Counted from the stretch's first letter, positions 1,859-9,838 are shown. The stretch: DNA of 64,000 bases from Calditrichaceae bacterium (GCA_050173015.1 JBFXLE010000007.1:64001-128000); one strand, 5' to 3'. Translations and numbers: made by a program. The notes: generated by a model not told the origin, from the sequence alone.

Positions 1859-2001
1859 GGCGGGGTTAAAACCCGGCGGATGCCAAATGATATAACATTA
1901 AATTCCGGTTTTTGGGGAAATGTAAATTCCGATTGACAATTTGGGCTGAAGCCCACCTTCATTAGGTTTCTCTTTAACCCCCGATCTAAAGATCGGGGCT
2001 A
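1859..2001. repeat. Cluster of REP-like palindromes between convergent genes (may also act as a terminator)
   Basis: GGGTTAAAACCC; TGGGCTGAAGCCCA (1942-1955); CCCCGATCT-AA-AGATCGGGG (1979-1998) abutting the hsdS stop. Confidence 0.6.
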
Positions 2002-3399
2002 TGACACACCATTAAACGCTTCCCGTAAAACCGCCTGCATCAGTTGCCCTACCTGCGCTTTGCGGGATTTGACCTGTTTTTCCAGCACGTCGATTTTTGC
2101 CATTAGCCGGTCCACTTTTTCGACAATGGCTTGTTGTTCGGCAAGTGGTGGTAAAGCAAATACAGCATTCCTTAAAACAGATTGATTCAAATTATTCATG
2201 GTCTGCCCGATAGAATTGCATAACAATTCTTTCTGAAAATAATCTGAGATAAAACCTTGAATGAAAAAACCTTTATTTATGAAATTTGAAACTTTGATAA
2301 AAAATGAACCTGTTCCACATAGCCATCCTTTTTCATTTTCAGAAACAACGGCACATTTACTTAAATCACCACGTCTTGCTAAAACGACATCATTCATATC
2401 TAAAATATATCGAGACAAGCGGTTTTTAGTGGTCTGACTGACCATCATTTTTTTATTCGCAACTATTTGATTAGCAACAATATTCATTGGATTTACTAAT
2501 GGTATTCCATCCTGCACATAGTCTGACTTATGCAACATCGTTCCAAAAGGTCCGGTTGAAAATTTATTAATTAATCCCGTCAACCGACACCAAACCCACC
2601 CTTCCGGCAGGGTAAACGGTTTTTCTGCTTCGCTGATGGGCGGCAGTTCTTTTATTTTCTTCGTGCCCTTTGTGTCCTTTGCGAGCCTGTCTTTTTCGGC
2701 TTTGATTTTTTCCAGCAACGCTTTAGCGGAATAATTGGGATCGTTCTCACAAAGTTCACGAAGTTCACTAAGATTTTTACCGGTTTCCGCGGCCAGTTTG
2801 TTCCATTGCTGTTCACGCCATGTTGCGGTCAGTTTGCCTTCCACCGCTTCCTGTAAAATGGCCTGGCGAAGTTGTTTGAGATTGTCAGACTGTTGAGAAA
2901 TATGAAAATCAATGTCACCAATTTCATTTTCTGTTCTTTTGAAAAATTCAACGATTGATTTTTGTGTATCAATATCTGGTAAATCAATCTTTAATGGTAA
3001 TAGATGTTTTGGTTTAATTTCTGTTTTTATACCACCTTTAACCTGGTCTTTTAAAAGTTGAATGAACTTAGGACTTTTTAAAAATCGTTTAAAATATTCA
3101 ACATTAATTTTTTTATCATCAAACTGATAGGAAGAATAATGAATAGTTGCAGTAATATCGACATCACCACCGTAGACAGCCAAAGCGCCTTTTGCCACAT
3201 TTATTCCGGAAATCACAAGGTCGCCTTTTTTTGCAATAATCATATCCGTCTTTGATGATTTATCAGAAAAATGCATTCCACCAGAGAAATCGATTTTATC
3301 CAGTCTTTTTAGTTTAGATACGATCGGATCACTGGGTTTGTATTTACCGACTCGTTCTTTTAAGAATTCGCTTACTTCTGTTACTTGCCAATCAGCCAT
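1999..3399 (-). CDS. hsdS: Type I restriction-modification specificity subunit
   Basis: Two TRDs with conserved regions (LRQAILQEAVEGKLT, LLEKIKAEK, EKPFTLPEGWVWCRL, LPPLAEQQAIV, LMQAVLREAF). Confidence 0.95.
   Translation of the reverse strand: MADWQVTEVSEFLKERVGKYKPSDPIVSKLKRLDKIDFSGGMHFSDKSSKTDMIIAKKGDLVISGINVAKGALAVYGGDVDITATIHYSSYQFDDKKINVEYFKRFLKSPKFIQLLKDQVKGGIKTEIKPKHLLPLKIDLPDIDTQKSIVEFFKRTENEIGDIDFHISQQSDNLKQLRQAILQEAVEGKLTATWREQQWNKLAAETGKNLSELRELCENDPNYSAKALLEKIKAEKDRLAKDTKGTKKIKELPPISEAEKPFTLPEGWVWCRLTGLINKFSTGPFGTMLHKSDYVQDGIPLVNPMNIVANQIVANKKMMVSQTTKNRLSRYILDMNDVVLARRGDLSKCAVVSENEKGWLCGTGSFFIKVSNFINKGFFIQGFISDYFQKELLCNSIGQTMNNLNQSVLRNAVFALPPLAEQQAIVEKVDRLMAKIDVLEKQVKSRKAQVGQLMQAVLREAFNGVS
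2659..2772. repeat. Inverted pair of 9-bp-periodic arms embedded in frame in hsdS
   Basis: CTTCGTG-CC-CTTTGTG-TC-CTTTGCG-AG (2659-2685) and CT-CACAAAG-TT-CACGAAG-TT-CACTAAG (2746-2772); same unit as the hairpins flanking the GxxExxY genes. Confidence 0.8.
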
Positions 3400-3442
3400 T
3401 ATTCAACTCACTCTTCAACTGTTCCAGTAATTCATCACTTTT
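3392..3442 (-). pseudogene. Diverged duplicate of the hsdM 3' end
   Basis: Translates KSDELLEQLKSELNNG* versus the HsdM end KSDALLSQLKSELNHG* (4486-4536), 13/16 identical. Confidence 0.8.
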
Positions 3443-4493
3443 TCTTACCCCCAGAATTATCCTTACCAGGCTTTTTTCGGGGTAATTTCTTTTTCGCCGC
3501 TTCCAGTTTTTTCACCGTTTTATCAAAATCGCCATCTCTTTTATCCTTAGCAACGATACGTTGAATATTGAATTTTTCATACTCATCTTCGGCAAGGGCG
3601 GCGGCCAATTCCTGAGATATTTTTCCGGCATGGGTTAAAATATCGCGCTCATTCAATTGCAGAAAAGAATCCAGTTTTTTTCGCCAGTCGCGCATAAAAA
3701 CCTGTTTATGCCGTTTGGCCTGATCTTCGGCAAAATCCAGATACATGGTTACCACGCGGTTCAGGGCTTGCAGTTCTTCTTCATTCAAATAATTCTTGGC
3801 AATCCTTACATCGCCTTTGCGTACCTTTTCACCTTTCCATGAAGTTAACCCCATATTGGGTTTGGAAGCATCCGCGCGGTCATGTACAATTTCAGCGGCG
3901 GTTTGTCCGGAAATAGCAAAGTGCAGTTTATTTTGCACTGCCTTAAAAAACTCGGGAGTCTCTTCCGCTATGGGATCATAGTCAACCGCTAATTTGTAAA
4001 TTTCCTTTATTTTTTGATAAAAGCGCTGCTCGCTGGATCGAATATCCCTGATCCGTTCCAACAGTTCATCAAAATAATCCGAACCGATATTATGGACATT
4101 CTTCAAGCGTTCATCATCCATGGTAAATCCCTTGACCATGTACTCGTTCAAACGCGCGGTAGCCCAGCGCCGGAATTGTGTACCACGGTGCGAACGGACG
4201 CGGTAACCAATGGCGATGATCGCTTCCAGATTATAAAATTGTGTACTATAATTCTTACCATCAGCGGCAGTTGTCAAGAAATCCTTGACAACTGAATTTT
4301 CATCGAGTTCGCCTTCTTTAAAGATATTATTTATATGAAGGCTGATATTTTGCTTGGTGGTCTGAAACAATTCCGCCATTAACTTCTGTGTCAGCCAAAC
4401 CGTTTCATCCTGCAGACGCACTTCTATTTTAGTTTTACCGGATTCGGTTTGATAGATGATAATCTGCGAATCGGGTTTGTTGGTTTTAGCCAT
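3435..4493 (-). CDS. RhuM-family (virulence RhuM) DNA-binding protein
   Basis: ETVWLTQKLMAELFQ, YNLEAIIAIGYRVRSHRGTQFRRWA, EYMVKGFTMDDERLK, VQNKLHFA, IAKNYL. Confidence 0.9.
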   Translation of the reverse strand: MAKTNKPDSQIIIYQTESGKTKIEVRLQDETVWLTQKLMAELFQTTKQNISLHINNIFKEGELDENSVVKDFLTTAADGKNYSTQFYNLEAIIAIGYRVRSHRGTQFRRWATARLNEYMVKGFTMDDERLKNVHNIGSDYFDELLERIRDIRSSEQRFYQKIKEIYKLAVDYDPIAEETPEFFKAVQNKLHFAISGQTAAEIVHDRADASKPNMGLTSWKGEKVRKGDVRIAKNYLNEEELQALNRVVTMYLDFAEDQAKRHKQVFMRDWRKKLDSFLQLNERDILTHAGKISQELAAALAEDEYEKFNIQRIVAKDKRDGDFDKTVKKLEAAKKKLPRKKPGKDNSGGKKK

Positions 4494-5934
4494 GGTTCAA
4501 CTCGCTCTTTAACTGACTTAGTAACGCGTCGCTTTTTCTGAATGAATCGTGCAGCATATCCAATAATTCAGCGCTTGTGTGAGTGTGTTCTTCTTCGGCA
4601 ATATGCGGATTTTTAATATCCAGATTAAAACCATTCTTTTCTAATTCTTCAATAGAAACTTTCCAGGCCTGTTCGTTGGCTTCACGCTTTGTCCACCACC
4701 GGCGCAGATTTTCAAATTCAATTTTCTGGATCGTTTTGGTTTTAGAATAAGCCTTCATTCCTTGCGGCAGTTTATGTTCCCAATACCAGATTTCTTTGGT
4801 TGCCTGCCCGCCTGTGGTGGGGCCTTTTTCAAAAAACAACAGATTGGTTGCCACGCTGGCATAGGGTTGGAACACAGAATTAGGTAAACGCACAATGGTA
4901 TGCAGATTACATGTTTCCAGAAAATGCTGACGGATGCGCTGCTTGACGCCATCGCCGGTTAAAGATCCATCCGGCAAAACAATCGCCGCCCGACCGTTTT
5001 CTTTTAAATAGCGAATCATCAAAACCAGAAAAAGGTCGGCGCTTTCCGTGGTGCGGTAATTCTGCGGAAAATTAGTTTCCACACCATCGCTTACCGATGC
5101 CCCGAAAGGCGGATTGGCGAGAATCACATCCACACGGTCTTTATGTCCGATACCGGTGTATTCGCGATTCAGGCTGTCGATATAATCCACATTGGGCACT
5201 TCAATATCATGAAGGATCAGGTTGGTCACACACAGCATAAATGGCAGCGGCTTTAATTCCATACCGTGAATGGTGGCTTCCAGATTTTTTAAATCTTCCA
5301 CGCCTTTTACATCCTGTTTGCGGATATTCTCTATGGCACAGGTTAAAAATCCGCCGGTGCCACAGGCCGGATCCAGCACTTTTTCGCCTAAACGGGGATT
5401 GATCATTTCGGTCATAAATTCGGTTAACGCGCGGGGGGTGTAAAATTCACCGTAATTACCGGCGCTTTGCAAATCGCGTAAAATAGTTTCATAGATATCA
5501 CCAAAAACGTGGCGGTCTTCGGAACTGTTAAAATCGATTTCATTCAGTTTATTGACCACCTGGCGGATGATGGTGCCGTTCTTCATATAATTGTTGGTGC
5601 CGGAAAAGATTTCACGGACAATCAATGTTCGCTTGTTGCCATTGGAAATATCAAGATTTTTCAAGGCCGGAAACAGCGTATTGTCGATAAATTCCTGCAA
5701 CTCGATCCCGGTCATCCCTTCATCATCCGCCGCCCAGTTGCGCCATTGAATAGTTGAAGGGATTGGCGATTTATAATTTTCATTGAGCAGTTCCAGTTCC
5801 TGATCTTTATCATCCAGTATCTTGAGAGAGATCATCCAGCCTAATTGCTCGATACGCTGCGCGTCACCCGAAACGCCCGGATCTTTGCGCATGATGTTTT
5901 GAAGTGTTTTTATGATATTGCCGATATTTTTCAT
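4486..5934 (-). CDS. hsdM: Type I R-M N6-adenine DNA methyltransferase subunit
   Basis: GEFYTPR, motif I DPACGTGGF, motif IV NPPF. Confidence 0.95.
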   Translation of the reverse strand: MKNIGNIIKTLQNIMRKDPGVSGDAQRIEQLGWMISLKILDDKDQELELLNENYKSPIPSTIQWRNWAADDEGMTGIELQEFIDNTLFPALKNLDISNGNKRTLIVREIFSGTNNYMKNGTIIRQVVNKLNEIDFNSSEDRHVFGDIYETILRDLQSAGNYGEFYTPRALTEFMTEMINPRLGEKVLDPACGTGGFLTCAIENIRKQDVKGVEDLKNLEATIHGMELKPLPFMLCVTNLILHDIEVPNVDYIDSLNREYTGIGHKDRVDVILANPPFGASVSDGVETNFPQNYRTTESADLFLVLMIRYLKENGRAAIVLPDGSLTGDGVKQRIRQHFLETCNLHTIVRLPNSVFQPYASVATNLLFFEKGPTTGGQATKEIWYWEHKLPQGMKAYSKTKTIQKIEFENLRRWWTKREANEQAWKVSIEELEKNGFNLDIKNPHIAEEEHTHTSAELLDMLHDSFRKSDALLSQLKSELNHG

Positions 5935-5947
5935 GTGGTTCCCTTTA

Positions 5948-6028
5948 TACTCACTAAGTTCACGAAGGACACAAAGAAAAAATTAACTTTAAAATACTCT
6001 TTGTGATCATTGTGTGCTTCGTGAGAGT
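5948..6028. repeat. 9-bp-periodic hairpin H1
   Basis: CACTAAG-TT-CACGAAG-GA-CACAAAG, AT-rich loop, CTTTGTG-AT-CATTGTG-TG-CTTCGTG-AGAGT. Confidence 0.85.
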
Positions 6029-6409
6029 CTACAATTTTCCGTTAATGATTCGTTTTAGCCCGTTTTTTAATAACACTTCGTTAAAATTTATTACCAATCC
6101 GAGTTTTAAACCGGATAATTTCAGATAAGTTAGTGTTTGTTTGAAATGAATGTCTTCCAGTTTTTTTACCGATTTGAGTTCTAATAGAACCTCATTTCCA
6201 ACAATTATATCCGCTCTAAAACCTTTATCAAACTGCAGATTTTCATAGACGACTGGAATGTCTTTCTCTACGTCAACCGATAATCCTGCCTTATTTATCT
6301 CATAAGCTAAAACATCACGGTAAACCGATTCCAGTAAACCAGGACCCAGTTTTGTATGAACTTTTAAAGCGCATTCAATAATAATTTTAGATATTTCATT
6401 TTCATTCAT
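6029..6409 (-). CDS. GxxExxY family protein (PD-(D/E)XK nuclease fold), copy 1
   Basis: VHTKLGPGLLESVY, RADIIV...LELKS, QTLTYLK, GLVINF. Confidence 0.92.
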   Translation of the reverse strand: MNENEISKIIIECALKVHTKLGPGLLESVYRDVLAYEINKAGLSVDVEKDIPVVYENLQFDKGFRADIIVGNEVLLELKSVKKLEDIHFKQTLTYLKLSGLKLGLVINFNEVLLKNGLKRIINGKL

Positions 6410-6417
6410 TTATTCTA

Positions 6418-6497
6418 TCTCACGATGTTCACGAAGGACACAAAGAAAAAATTAACTTTAAAATACTCTTTGTGATCATTGTGTGCTTCGTGAGAGT
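6418..6497. repeat. 9-bp-periodic hairpin H2
   Basis: CACGATG-TT-CACGAAG-GA-CACAAAG ... CTTTGTG-AT-CATTGTG-TG-CTTCGTG; 469 bp from H1. Confidence 0.85.
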
Positions 6498-6878
6498 CTA
6501 CAATTTTCCGTTAATGATTCGTTTTAGCCCGTTTTTTAATAACACTTCGTTAAAATTTATTACCAATCCGAGTTTTAAACCGGATAATTTCAGATAAGTT
6601 AGTGTTTGTTTGAAATGAATGTCTTCCAGTTTTTTTACCGATTTGAGTTCTAATAGAACCTCATTTCCAACAATTATATCCGCTCTAAAACCTTTATCAA
6701 ACTGCAGATTTTCATAGACCACAGGAATGTCTTTCTCTACGTCAACCGATAATCCTGCCTTATTTATCTCATAAGCTAAAACATCACGGTAAACCGATTC
6801 CAGTAAACCAGGACCCAGTTTTGTATGAACTTTTAAAGCACATTCAATAATAATTTTAGATATTTCATTTTCATTCAT
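6498..6878 (-). CDS. GxxExxY family protein, copy 2
   Basis: Protein identical to copy 1. Confidence 0.92.
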   Translation of the reverse strand: MNENEISKIIIECALKVHTKLGPGLLESVYRDVLAYEINKAGLSVDVEKDIPVVYENLQFDKGFRADIIVGNEVLLELKSVKKLEDIHFKQTLTYLKLSGLKLGLVINFNEVLLKNGLKRIINGKL

Positions 6879-6886
6879 TTTTTCTA

Positions 6887-6966
6887 TCTCACGATGTTCA
6901 CGAAGGACACAAAGAAAAAATTAACTTTAAAATACTCTCTGTGATCATTGTGTGCTTCGTGAGAGT
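6887..6966. repeat. 9-bp-periodic hairpin H3
   Basis: As H2 but CTCTGTG (6937-6943) replaces CTTTGTG. Confidence 0.85.
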
Positions 6967-7347
6967 CTACAATTTTCCGTTAATGATTCGTTTTAGCCCG
7001 TTTTTTAATAACACTTCGTTAAAATTTATTACCAATCCGAGTTTTAAACCGGATAATTTCAGATAAGTTAGTGTTTGTTTGAAATGAATGTCTTCCAGTT
7101 TTTTTACCGATTTGAGTTCTAATAGAACCTCATTTCCAACAATTATATCCGCTCTAAAACCTTTATCAAACTGCAGATTTTCATAGACCACAGGAATGTC
7201 TTTCTCTACGTCAACCGATAATCCTGCCTTATTTATCTCATAAGCTAAAACATCACGGTAAACCGATTCCAGTAAACCAGGACCCAGTTTTGTATGAACT
7301 TTTAAAGCACATTCAATAATAATTTTAGATATTTCATTTTCATTCAT
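6967..7347 (-). CDS. GxxExxY family protein, copy 3 (start corrected to ATG at 7347)
   Basis: 126 aa identical to copies 1 and 2; the ORF-track N-terminal extension only reads through hairpin H4. Confidence 0.92.
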   Translation of the reverse strand: MNENEISKIIIECALKVHTKLGPGLLESVYRDVLAYEINKAGLSVDVEKDIPVVYENLQFDKGFRADIIVGNEVLLELKSVKKLEDIHFKQTLTYLKLSGLKLGLVINFNEVLLKNGLKRIINGKL

Positions 7348-7351
7348 TACG

Positions 7352-7431
7352 ACTCTCGCAAAGTTCACAAAGGCCACGAAGAAAAAAGATTTAACTAAAA
7401 AACTTTGTGTTCTTTGTGCGCTTAGTGAGTA
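7352..7431. repeat. 9-bp-periodic hairpin H4 (diverged)
   Basis: CGCAAAG-TT-CACAAAG-GC-CACGAAG ... CTTTGTG-TT-CTTTGTG-CG-CTTAGTG-AGTA; its outer 11 bp are a perfect inverted repeat of TACTCACTAAG at 5948-5958. Confidence 0.85.
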
Positions 7432-7432
7432 A

Positions 7433-9838
7433 CTATGCTGCTTCCTTATACAATTCTGTTTCAAGTTCTTTAATCATTTTTAGATAGCCGTTTCTACCGC
7501 CAAAAAGTTTGACGATTTCCGCGGGTGTTCCGATTTCACTAAAAGGATCAATACGTAAAACCGCTAAATCTTCGATGTTTTCAATACCTTCCGTTGCGTA
7601 TTTATCAAGCAGGGCATCAATTATATTCCTTGCCTGTTCGCCATATTTAGTAAAGTAATTGCGTTTCTTCACATTTTCAGCCCGTTCGCGCCTTGTCAGC
7701 GCGGGCATATCCCAGGCCACATGACAAATCAGATCAAATAAATCCAAATCCTTTTTAACTTCTTCTTTTAGATTTTCAAGGATAATGCCTTCGGCTTCCA
7801 GTTCATCAATCAACGCTTTTTTCTTTTCGGCGGAATTCCAGCTCGACAAGAATTCATCCAGGCTGCGATATGTTTTAAGGATGTTCCTTTTCGTATAGTC
7901 TTTCAGGCTTTCTGTAATTAATGTACCATCACCATCCAAAAATTGAACACGTTCATTAAGAACTGAAACATCTACTCCCGCCACATAGATCTTATTTCTT
8001 CGTTCAGATACAATTTCTCCGCCTGTAACAGTATGTGGTTCTCCATAATCAGCATTGTTTTCACCCTCAAAGTCAATTTCTTCTCCGGATTCTTCATCTA
8101 TAAAGTCTTCCTGTCCTTCCGGATTTATATCATCATCAGTGAGCGGTTGATCCGCGTCAACTTCTTTGACCATCACCGGATCGCCGTCAAAAGCAGGATC
8201 AGCAAATAAGTCCGTGACATTGCGGAAATCCATAATGGTAAAGTAGGTTTTATCAAATTCTTCATTGATGCGTGTGCCGCGTCCGATGATCTGCTTGAAT
8301 TCGGTCATTGATTGGATATTGGAATCCAGTACAATCAGTTTGCAGGTTTGCGCGTCCACACCGGTCGACATCAATTTGGAAGTGGTGGCAATAACCGGAT
8401 AAGTCTCTTCGGGATTGATAAAATTATCCAGTTCACGTTTTCCTTCATCCTCATCGCCGGTTATGCGCATGACATATTTATAGTTTTCCTGTACCAAATC
8501 TGTATTGAAGTTAGAGATCGCCTGACGCATGCGTTCCGCATGTTCGATATCAACGCAAAAAATAATTGTCTTGTCGAAGCGGTTCGTTTTTGTTAAAAAC
8601 TCAGTAACTTTATTGGCGACTAATTCAGTACGCGGATCGATCACCAAATTGCGGTCATAATCTTTGGTATTATATAACCGGTCTTCTATCAGATTTCCGT
8701 CTTTATCGGTTTTACCTGATTCCGGCCTCCAACCTTCCAAATCCACATTAATTCCAACACGAATCACTTTATATGGCGCCAGAAATCCATCGGAAATACC
8801 TTGTCTGAGAGAATAGGTATAAATAGGATCGCCAAAATATTCTATATTTGAAACATCTCTTGTTTCTTTTGGCGTTGCGGTTAGACCAATATGAGTTGCT
8901 GTATTAAAATATTCCAGAATTTCCCGCCAGGCGCTATCAGCGGACGCGCTTCCACGATGGCATTCATCTACAACGATCAGGTCAAAAAAGTCACGACTAA
9001 ATTCTCTGTAAGCGTCTTTATCTTCATCATAGCTTGTCAAACCCTGATACAGGGCAAGGTATATTTCAAAAGCCTTGTCAATTTGCTTTTTGCGAATAAC
9101 CGTCATGCGCTCTTTGAAATGTTTGAAATCGCCGCGCTTGGTTTGATTGATTAAAGCGTTACGGTCAGCAAGAAACAGAATGCGTTTGGCAGTTCCACTT
9201 TTCCACAGACGATAAATGATTTGAAAAGCCGCGTAGGTTTTACCCGTCCCGGTTGCCATAACGATTAGAATTCTGTTTTGTCCCCGGGCGATGGCTTCAA
9301 CTGTTCTGTTAACTGCTATTTGTTGGTAATAGCGCGGCTTTCTTCCCGAACCGTCAATGAAATAATCATGGGATGAAATACGCTCTTGTTCGCTTGTTTC
9401 AATGCCTTTGAATTTTTTATAGCGGAGCCAGAGTTCTTCCGGAGCGGGAAAATTTTCCAGAGATAACTCTGTTTCGATTTGCCCGGTAGATTTAGTTCGA
9501 TCGTGTTCCAGAAAGCCATCACCATTGGAACTATATGCAACAGGAATATCCAGAATTTCAGCATAATCCAAACCTTGCTGCATACCAGCGCCAACTGAGT
9601 GCTTATTATCTTTTGCTTCAATTACGGCAATTGGAATATTGGATTTGTAGTAAAAAATGATGTCCGCTTTTTTAGCCTTGCCGCGTTTTGTTTTGTTGCC
9701 TTTAACATAAATTCGCCCGGCTGTAAAATAGACTTCCTCCCGAACTTGCTTTTGAATATCCCAACCTGCTTTTTCCAGGTTTGGAATAATATACTTGGTG
9801 ATTATGTCTCGTTCTGTTAAATCTCTTTTTGACGTCAT
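7433..9838 (-). CDS. hsdR: Type I restriction endonuclease subunit R (EcoAI/EcoEI-like)
   Basis: Nuclease ADII..IEAK, Walker A MATGTGKT, DECH box, GLTATP, QIIGRGTR, EcoEI-like C-terminal domain. Confidence 0.95.
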   Translation of the reverse strand: MTSKRDLTERDIITKYIIPNLEKAGWDIQKQVREEVYFTAGRIYVKGNKTKRGKAKKADIIFYYKSNIPIAVIEAKDNKHSVGAGMQQGLDYAEILDIPVAYSSNGDGFLEHDRTKSTGQIETELSLENFPAPEELWLRYKKFKGIETSEQERISSHDYFIDGSGRKPRYYQQIAVNRTVEAIARGQNRILIVMATGTGKTYAAFQIIYRLWKSGTAKRILFLADRNALINQTKRGDFKHFKERMTVIRKKQIDKAFEIYLALYQGLTSYDEDKDAYREFSRDFFDLIVVDECHRGSASADSAWREILEYFNTATHIGLTATPKETRDVSNIEYFGDPIYTYSLRQGISDGFLAPYKVIRVGINVDLEGWRPESGKTDKDGNLIEDRLYNTKDYDRNLVIDPRTELVANKVTEFLTKTNRFDKTIIFCVDIEHAERMRQAISNFNTDLVQENYKYVMRITGDEDEGKRELDNFINPEETYPVIATTSKLMSTGVDAQTCKLIVLDSNIQSMTEFKQIIGRGTRINEEFDKTYFTIMDFRNVTDLFADPAFDGDPVMVKEVDADQPLTDDDINPEGQEDFIDEESGEEIDFEGENNADYGEPHTVTGGEIVSERRNKIYVAGVDVSVLNERVQFLDGDGTLITESLKDYTKRNILKTYRSLDEFLSSWNSAEKKKALIDELEAEGIILENLKEEVKKDLDLFDLICHVAWDMPALTRRERAENVKKRNYFTKYGEQARNIIDALLDKYATEGIENIEDLAVLRIDPFSEIGTPAEIVKLFGGRNGYLKMIKELETELYKEAA

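Follow-up and report, generated by a model that had tools for sequence, protein, structure and literature searches.

Why does the specificity gene of a type I restriction-modification system carry, within its reading frame, two short repeats of the kind that bracket the GxxExxY genes of the same operon? The operon lies on the minus strand in the first 10 kb of the window, by which we mean the whole stretch of 64,000 nucleotides analyzed here (Calditrichaceae bacterium, GCA_050173015.1 JBFXLE010000007.1:64001-128000). Below we describe the two repeats, which we call the L' and R' arms, their distribution and their place in the protein, and then weigh what they may be doing there.

The hsdS locus and its two repeat arms

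The gene order is hsdR, three identical GxxExxY genes (each coding for 126 aa), hsdM, a RhuM-family gene and hsdS, with the following features.

1999-3399, minus strand: hsdS, specificity subunit, 466 aa, intact (ORF; PF01420, E 9.5e-17, on residues 265-441; AlphaFold2; Foldseek)
2659-2685, minus strand: L' arm (residues 239-247), whose three 9-base units translate into Leu/x-Thr/Ala-Lys triplets (similarity, motif count, translation)
2686-2745, minus strand: 60 bases between the arms, coding the accessory helix conserved in all homologues (alignment; invariant A225, L228, L229, I232 and E235)
2746-2772, minus strand: R' arm (residues 210-218), whose three 9-base units translate into Leu-x-Glu triplets in a short helix (similarity, motif count, translation)
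3435-4493, minus strand: RhuM-family gene, nested between hsdM and hsdS (PF13310, E 1e-115)
4486-5934, minus strand: hsdM (PF02384, PF12161)
5950-6025, no strand assigned: hairpin 4, separating hsdM from GxxExxY copy 3, with inverted arms of three units (20/27 complementary)
6029-6409, minus strand: GxxExxY gene, copy 3 (PF13366; TIGR04256, E 2e-40)
6419-6494, no strand assigned: hairpin 3 (20/27 complementary)
6498-6878, minus strand: GxxExxY gene, copy 2 (protein identical to copy 3)
6888-6963, no strand assigned: hairpin 2 (19/27 complementary)
6967-7347, minus strand: GxxExxY gene, copy 1 (ORF; the protein start common to all three copies is 7347)
7355-7429, no strand assigned: hairpin 1, separating hsdR from GxxExxY copy 1 (includes 7355-7381, the arm most closely related to L' of hsdS)
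7433-9838, minus strand: hsdR (PF04851, PF08463)

The ORF listed for copy 1 of the GxxExxY gene extends to 7464 from an upstream TTG. The assignment of HsdS is borne out by the presence of hsdM and hsdR in the same operon, and the Foldseek matches of the HsdS model include 1YF2, 3OKG, 5YBB and 2Y7C. TRD1 is visible only as a fold in the AlphaFold2 model, the PF01420 match covering residues 265-441. No GxxExxY gene was found outside the operon in the 4,336,749-base genome.

The repeat unit consists of a seven-base core, whose second base is A or G, and two free bases. Each intergenic hairpin is made of two inverted arms of three 9-base units each, and the hsdS arms likewise have three units. 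The first-pass annotation had placed both arms in frame in hsdS, on either side of a conserved helix, and translation of 2605-2922 confirms both peptides as well as the intervening helix. Its arithmetic, that a 9-base unit is three codons, so that gain or loss of units keeps the frame, is also correct.

The two hsdS stretches match different hairpins. Positions 2655-2685 are complementary to 7355-7385 at 28/31 (90%), and the core L' arm is complementary at 24/27 to 7355-7381, in the hairpin next to hsdR. Positions 2746-2778 have 73% identity over 33 nt with the arm at 5950-5982, and the core R' arm is identical to 5950-5976 at 23/27. R' and L' stand in inverted orientation to each other and are complementary at 20/27, where the four intergenic hairpins have 19-20/27. 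The arms of a hairpin do not match more fully, as their free bases and one position of the core are not complementary. Since the cores are conserved and the spacers free, this degree of complementarity fits motif recognition better than base pairing.

A pattern of two units, with at most one mismatch, has 19 matches in the window against 0.15 expected, and none of 100 shuffles reached 19. In the whole genome there are 24 matches in 10 groups. Five groups hold several matches each, one in hsdS and one in each of the four hairpins; the remaining five consist of a lone match. Clustering of the motif in this genome is thus confined to hsdS and the hairpins. With their tandem units and conserved core, their inverted pairing and their linkage to a GxxExxY gene, the two hsdS stretches are, with high confidence, solo arms that belong to the inverted repeat bracketing the GxxExxY cassette and have become fixed in the HsdS frame. 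Unlike the hairpins, the R'/L' pair encloses coding sequence of the host gene, and in most alleles L' is the only arm.

Distribution of the arms and of their parent repeat

The central region was aligned for 88 HsdS homologues. R' is present in 4/88, the query and its three nearest relatives, in which the arm and its surroundings amount to about 14-17 extra residues, and it is absent from the other 84. The L' triplets are found in 11/88, with one further partial case; homologues that do not have L' have a lysine-rich stretch at this place that is one residue shorter. About 24 bases of this older stretch have been replaced by the arm, which is therefore not a clean insertion. The alignment supports the arms being a derived state of hsdS. 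It also bears out the earlier proposal that a nuclease-associated repeat invaded the gene, given that most homologues are without arms and that, as described below, entry has been recurrent and the core type tracks the hairpins. Each arm can be found alone, R' in one homologue (P0004) and L' in many; therefore, the two arms entered separately.

The DNA search covered the phylum (86 genomes), 80 species-representative loci (linker parsed in 59) and 80 metagenome loci (62 parsed). Twelve distinct hsdS alleles, belonging to Calditrichota, Brocadiaceae and metagenome contigs, carry L' in their DNA, every time with three units, in one frame and starting at the same leucine codon. R' is missing from 10 of these 12 alleles. 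No further R'-bearing allele was seen among the 86 genomes of the phylum, so R' is known as DNA from two genomes only. A thirteenth arm, from the MAG of an Elusimicrobia endosymbiont (L085), lies at the same hsdS site in another frame, where it is read as Arg-Lys/Gly-Glu triplets. Its own operon has an empty hairpin immediately upstream of hsdR, each arm of which is identical to the hsdS arm at 23/27, and no GxxExxY gene was found in this 2.2-Mb genome. Because the site is the same and the frame is not, there must have been at least two independent entries at one hsdS site.

The core type of the hsdS arm follows that of the operon's own hairpins, as supported by the sequence comparisons. In locus L126, a G-type core is present in both the cassette hairpin and the hsdS arm, which agree at 23/27, and both of the two operons with G-type cores in their hairpins have the same core in hsdS. 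A GxxExxY gene lies no more than 8 kb away in eight related loci: hsdS has an arm in five of them, a different palindrome at this position in two (L100 and L119) and nothing of the kind in one (L046). For the A-type cores, ongoing local exchange is not shown, since the hsdS arm is nearest to its own operon's hairpin in only 3/7 operons. In the other four, it matches its own hairpin at 20-22/27 and the hairpins of other Brocadiaceae operons at 23/27, as would be expected of descent and not of local exchange. The A-type hsdS arms agree among themselves at 21-26/27 and with any hairpin at 20-24/27, and this closer mutual agreement points to descent from one old insertion in Calditrichota and Brocadiaceae. 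In L044, an hsdS arm is present with no hairpin within 7 kb upstream, and the only GxxExxY sequence in the genome is a decayed remnant. Together with L085, this locus indicates that an arm can persist without its candidate reader.

The repeat belongs to GxxExxY genes in general and not to hsdS. GxxExxY genes are present in 39/41 related genomes, and of 30 such genes taken from 40 relatives, 14 have the core, scored as 3+N+3, at least six times within 150 nt, where the maximum in 900 shuffles was five. A strict period-9 test on the flanks of the 30 genes was passed in 5, and this test has low power because only 6/9 unit positions are conserved. The cores vary between lineages, and many of the GxxExxY genes lie outside restriction-modification operons. 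In Brocadiaceae operons, hsdR is followed by an arm, a GxxExxY gene, an inverted arm and hsdM, and the core is identical to that in the source operon. In one of them (L062), the GxxExxY gene is internally deleted and the arms on both sides are intact. According to precomputed domain assignments, none of the 88 HsdS homologues has a PF13366 domain inside it. Literature searches through GxxExxY, PDDEXK_3 and PF13366, judged by titles and the beginnings of abstracts, found nothing on repeats linked to GxxExxY genes, nor did we find reports of palindromic or MITE inserts in frame in hsdS.

Protein position, unit number and synonymous sites

An AlphaFold2 model of HsdS was built from a 37-sequence alignment, with a mean pLDDT of 81.5, a pTM of 0.44 and low confidence in the linker. 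It predicts two TRDs and a coiled coil of helices 143-186 and 419-462, with 44 residues each. After residue 186, the model has short helices at 192-206 and 210-219, the latter containing R', and then the conserved helix at 222-241. Residues 242-249, at the end of L', are modeled as disordered with pLDDT below 50, and TRD2 begins at about residue 263. The arms themselves, 210-218 and 239-247, have pLDDT values of 44-74. Between the end of the first helix and the start of TRD2 there are 5 residues in 3OKG and 5YBB, the solved HsdS structures of Thermoanaerobacter tengcongensis, and about 72 here. The model thus places both arms, with low confidence in this region, beyond the coiled coil, in an accessory linker that is missing from the solved HsdS structures. 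A structure prediction had been proposed earlier as a check on whether the inserts extend the coiled coil, and in this model they do not, since they follow helix 143-186.

The unit number is three in all 13 hsdS arms for which there is DNA. Logan contigs from three runs of three studies, each spanning at least 2013-3008, differ from the window at 0, 1 and 4 bases and have no indel in the arms. The variation in unit number that the first-pass annotation had suggested looking for is therefore not seen, in contigs from which rare variants would escape. The GxxExxY array is partly uncovered in some runs, as expected for a 99% tandem repeat.

The codons of the arm were compared with those of the flanks in the 12 L' alleles. 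Lysine is coded by AAG in 34/34 codons of the arm and 18/78 of the flanks, and the leading leucine of the arm by CTC in 12/12, a codon used for leucine in 0/49 cases in the flanks; these codon counts, and the raw probabilities, overstate independence because the 12 alleles form about four related groups. The codon of the free residue has C as its third base in 24/24 cases, although eight amino acids are encoded there. The free position of the core falls on the third base of the Thr/Ala codon, and this base varies (G 17, A 16, T 3). Among columns with an invariant amino acid, the third base is kept in 1/9 in the flanks and 3/3 in the arm, and 6/9 columns of the arm have an invariant third base, also where the residue changes. 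When the window is compared with a Brocadia allele, the codons for identical residues differ in 10/25 cases in the flanks and 0/6 in the arm. The direction is clear: in these alignments, the arm is conserved in the pattern of the repeat and not in that of the genetic code. Since its codons keep the repeat consensus while its amino acids vary, the arm is held, or refreshed, as nucleic acid.

Readings of the arms and comparison with known systems

We suggest that arms were copied from the repeat family into one spot of hsdS more than once. The copying may have occurred by short-patch conversion or by template switching onto an A/G-rich, lysine-rich sequence, and short-patch copying is favored, since the arm took the place of about 24 bases and was not cleanly added. 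With units of three codons, the arms would be read as harmless hydrophilic triplets. HsdS would merely tolerate them, and the spacer of the recognition site would not be set by them. The arms may then have been kept as sites at the level of the nucleic acid, with the array of cores read by the same factor as the hairpin arms. This putative arm-reading factor would most obviously be the GxxExxY protein. Such continued use is the reading we prefer, though tentatively, as we regard its truth as about evenly balanced.

The most serious competitor is that the arms have no role and are neutral passengers comparable to the Rickettsia palindromic elements, left behind by a selfish repeat where the linker could accommodate them. 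Their frozen synonymous sites would in that case reflect either short-patch conversion from hairpin arms, occurring repeatedly, or a linker module that spread recently by recombination between hsdS genes. That the site is permissive follows from other, unrelated palindromes in frame in the same linker (one in L100 and L143, and others in L119, L048 and L103, with a mini-palindrome in L032). The persistence of arms where no intact GxxExxY gene was found, the replacement of the lysine-rich stretch in place of a clean insertion, and the 3/7 hsdS arms that are nearest to the hairpin of their own operon are also what would be expected of passengers. However, the hsdS arms of Calditrichota and Brocadiaceae share a third unit that is missing from the local hairpins, and their closer agreement with one another than with hairpins indicates descent and not fresh conversion. 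Furthermore, the flanks of these same alleles have diverged at synonymous sites to an extent that the arm has not. We consider the passenger explanation somewhat unlikely, though it deserves to be taken seriously.

A role in mRNA structure is a less probable alternative. In this case, R' and L' would form a stem around the 60 bases coding the helix, or L' would pair with hairpin arms upstream in the polycistronic transcript, and the pairing would modulate the translation, processing or stability of the hsdS mRNA. The minimum-energy fold of 2640-2790 (151 bases) does pair the arms, at -36.3 kcal/mol, and the complementarity of R' with L' equals that of real hairpins; that of L' with 7355-7385 is 28/31. 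Nevertheless, the z-score of the fold is modest (-2.13, with 6/200 shuffles as good), the cores pair by just 3+3 bases around a mismatch, and 10 of the 12 alleles have no R' with which to pair. Neither an Rfam family at gathering score nor a T-run after the stem was found. Thus, we think it unlikely that structure in the message is what holds the arms.

A bolder version of the preferred reading is that the GxxExxY cassette system actively docks at the hsdS arms. The factor that reads the hairpin arms would bind within hsdS as well, allowing inversion, deletion or cassette loading, for example by recombination between 2655-2685 and 7355-7385, and the frozen synonymous sites would be the footprint of this use. 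If it were true, a type I specificity gene would be the programmed target of an undescribed mobile nuclease cassette. We consider this improbable. More doubtful again is that the arms are simply a recombination site, serving for exchange of TRD2 or for inversion or deletion of the operon against the hairpin arms. The 28/31 inverted repeats are 4.7 kb apart, the arms lie at the border of a conserved region and TRD2, and many different TRD2s occur among the arm-bearing alleles. However, the TRD2s are equally diverse in alleles without arms, and no second hsdS match was found in the source genome. Contigs of four runs have no strand-changing joint, and the only joint listed, from 2001 to 5961 in run X4, has a side of 21 bases and is of a kind flagged as unreliable. 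We therefore regard a recombination site as very unlikely.

The mechanism proposed in the first-pass annotation was slippage, by which gain or loss of 9-base units would change the length of the central region and so retune the spacer of the recognition site. The units are indeed tandem and three codons long, and in the account of EcoR124I/II given in PMC3874165, the number of repeats in the central helix can alter the gap. The arms are placed outside the coiled coil in the model, the units differ from one another and are thus a poor substrate for slippage, all 13 alleles have three units, and the contigs of three studies contain no indel. By arm position, fixed unit number and lack of indels, slippage is largely refuted, and its chance of being right is slight. 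The arms are accordingly not supported as tuners and, as far as the model can be trusted, do not appear to set the spacer. Finally, chance or protein-level convergence, in which a lysine-rich linker happens to resemble the repeat, as might be thought from the Lys at every third place in arm-less alleles too, is hardly credible and is refuted by the 19 matches against 0.15 expected, the genome-wide clusters only at the operon, the third-base conservation contrary to codon degeneracy and the use of a second frame at the same site in L085.

What do these findings mean for hsdS and for the repeat? A hardly described repeat family tied to GxxExxY nuclease genes has gone beyond intergenic positions to enter one spot of hsdS repeatedly, in at least three phyla. 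A coding stretch that appears constrained as DNA or RNA, and not as protein, offers a cheap handle on the role of the arm and of the GxxExxY protein. For annotation, the odd tripeptide repeats of HsdS linkers are explained.

The closest known parallels each share a part of this picture. The tempting analogy with EcoR124I/II is removed by these results. As described in PMC3874165, the TAEL repeats of EcoR124I/II, like the hsdS arms, are tandem and in frame and lie between TRD1 and TRD2 of a type I HsdS, and they are present in 2 or 3 units, which changes the gap from 6 to 7 bp. The analogy fails because TAEL lies inside the coiled-coil helix, whereas the arms lie after it in the long linker; furthermore, the arms always have three units, and these are non-identical. 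Phase-variable type I systems, as treated in PMC7383803, also have simple or inverted repeats in hsdS that are tied to restriction-modification variation. In that account, they work by slippage of homopolymers or short units, or by several hsdS copies and a recombinase, neither of which is seen here.

REP sequences and REPINs, as presented in PMC3116915, are extragenic and linked to the RAYT Y1 HUH transposase. The arrangement is similar in that a small gene is bracketed by inverted short repeats and gene-less hairpins occur elsewhere. However, the gene linked to the present repeat is of the PD-(D/E)XK-fold GxxExxY family (PF13366/TIGR04256) and is not an HUH transposase, and there is no genome-wide spread in the source genome.

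The Rickettsia palindromic elements, which PMC10969869 describes as about 150 bp long and dispersed in many genes of one genome, are similar to the hsdS arms, as are intragenic MITEs, in being short selfish palindromes in frame in genes, where the fold tolerates them. Here too the host ORF is intact and the linker permissive. In contrast, we find neither a whole element nor dispersed copies: the arms are single, 27 bases long and present in hsdS only, in an operon with the parent hairpins, and they are built of 9-base units whose DNA consensus is kept at synonymous sites. In-frame selfish palindromes and gene-linked hairpin repeats are thus known already, from the Rickettsia elements and from REPIN-RAYT, respectively. 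What is new here is the recurrent entry of solo arms at one hsdS site, the match of their core type to the hairpins, and the constraint at the nucleotide level within coding sequence.

The GxxExxY tandem array and depleted cassettes

The three GxxExxY genes of the window lie in a tandem array with a period of 469 bases (5950-7431), in which each repeat comprises one gene and one hairpin. The repeats are 99% identical, and the proteins that the three genes encode are identical. When the contigs of all four sequencing runs were compared, the array was found to be either collapsed or without cover.

Cassettes that have lost or lack the gene were seen at other hsdS-homologue loci. In a Brocadiaceae operon (L062:5421-5545), an internal deletion has removed all of the GxxExxY gene except a few codons at either end, and the arms around it are intact. 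The Elusimicrobia endosymbiont MAG (L085) has an empty hairpin ahead of hsdR and a matching arm within hsdS (3038-3110 and 6181-6207), and a GxxExxY gene was not detected in its 2.2-Mb assembly. Separately, the hsdM frame of Candidatus Brocadia sp. WS118 is apparently split into two ORFs of 219 and 253 aa (L105:4868-6323).

Palindromes within and beyond hsdS

The HsdS linker, between the first coiled-coil helix and TRD2, carries unrelated palindromic inserts, in frame, in other lineages (L100:8546-8815, L143, L119, L048:982-1250, L103, and L032:1495-1833). Two Brocadiaceae-type palindromic inserts occupy the exact position of the L' arm, one of the two solo arms in the window's hsdS, and a mini-palindrome of 8 residues is located in the linker ahead of TRD2.

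Directly past the hsdS stop is a small G+C-rich palindrome (window 1979-2004), which occurs about 10 times in the genome; three copies, spaced about 147 bases apart, are found on contig C51. The contigs of three runs break at window 2013, and many loose ends fall at 1938-1996. One contig of run X4 joins position 2001, just past the hsdS stop, to 5961, in the hairpin arm before hsdM, leaving out 3959 bases. This joint may come from another organism, since its matching side is only 21 bases.

The RhuM-family gene

A 52-base direct repeat, 77% identical, is present at window 3394-3445 and 4488-4539, where it spans the starts of hsdS and the RhuM gene, respectively, each with the preceding bases. 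In the 4488-4539 copy, the bases preceding the RhuM start are the 3' end of hsdM. This arrangement suggests that the RhuM gene entered the operon at the hsdM-hsdS junction and that the tail of hsdM was duplicated in the process.
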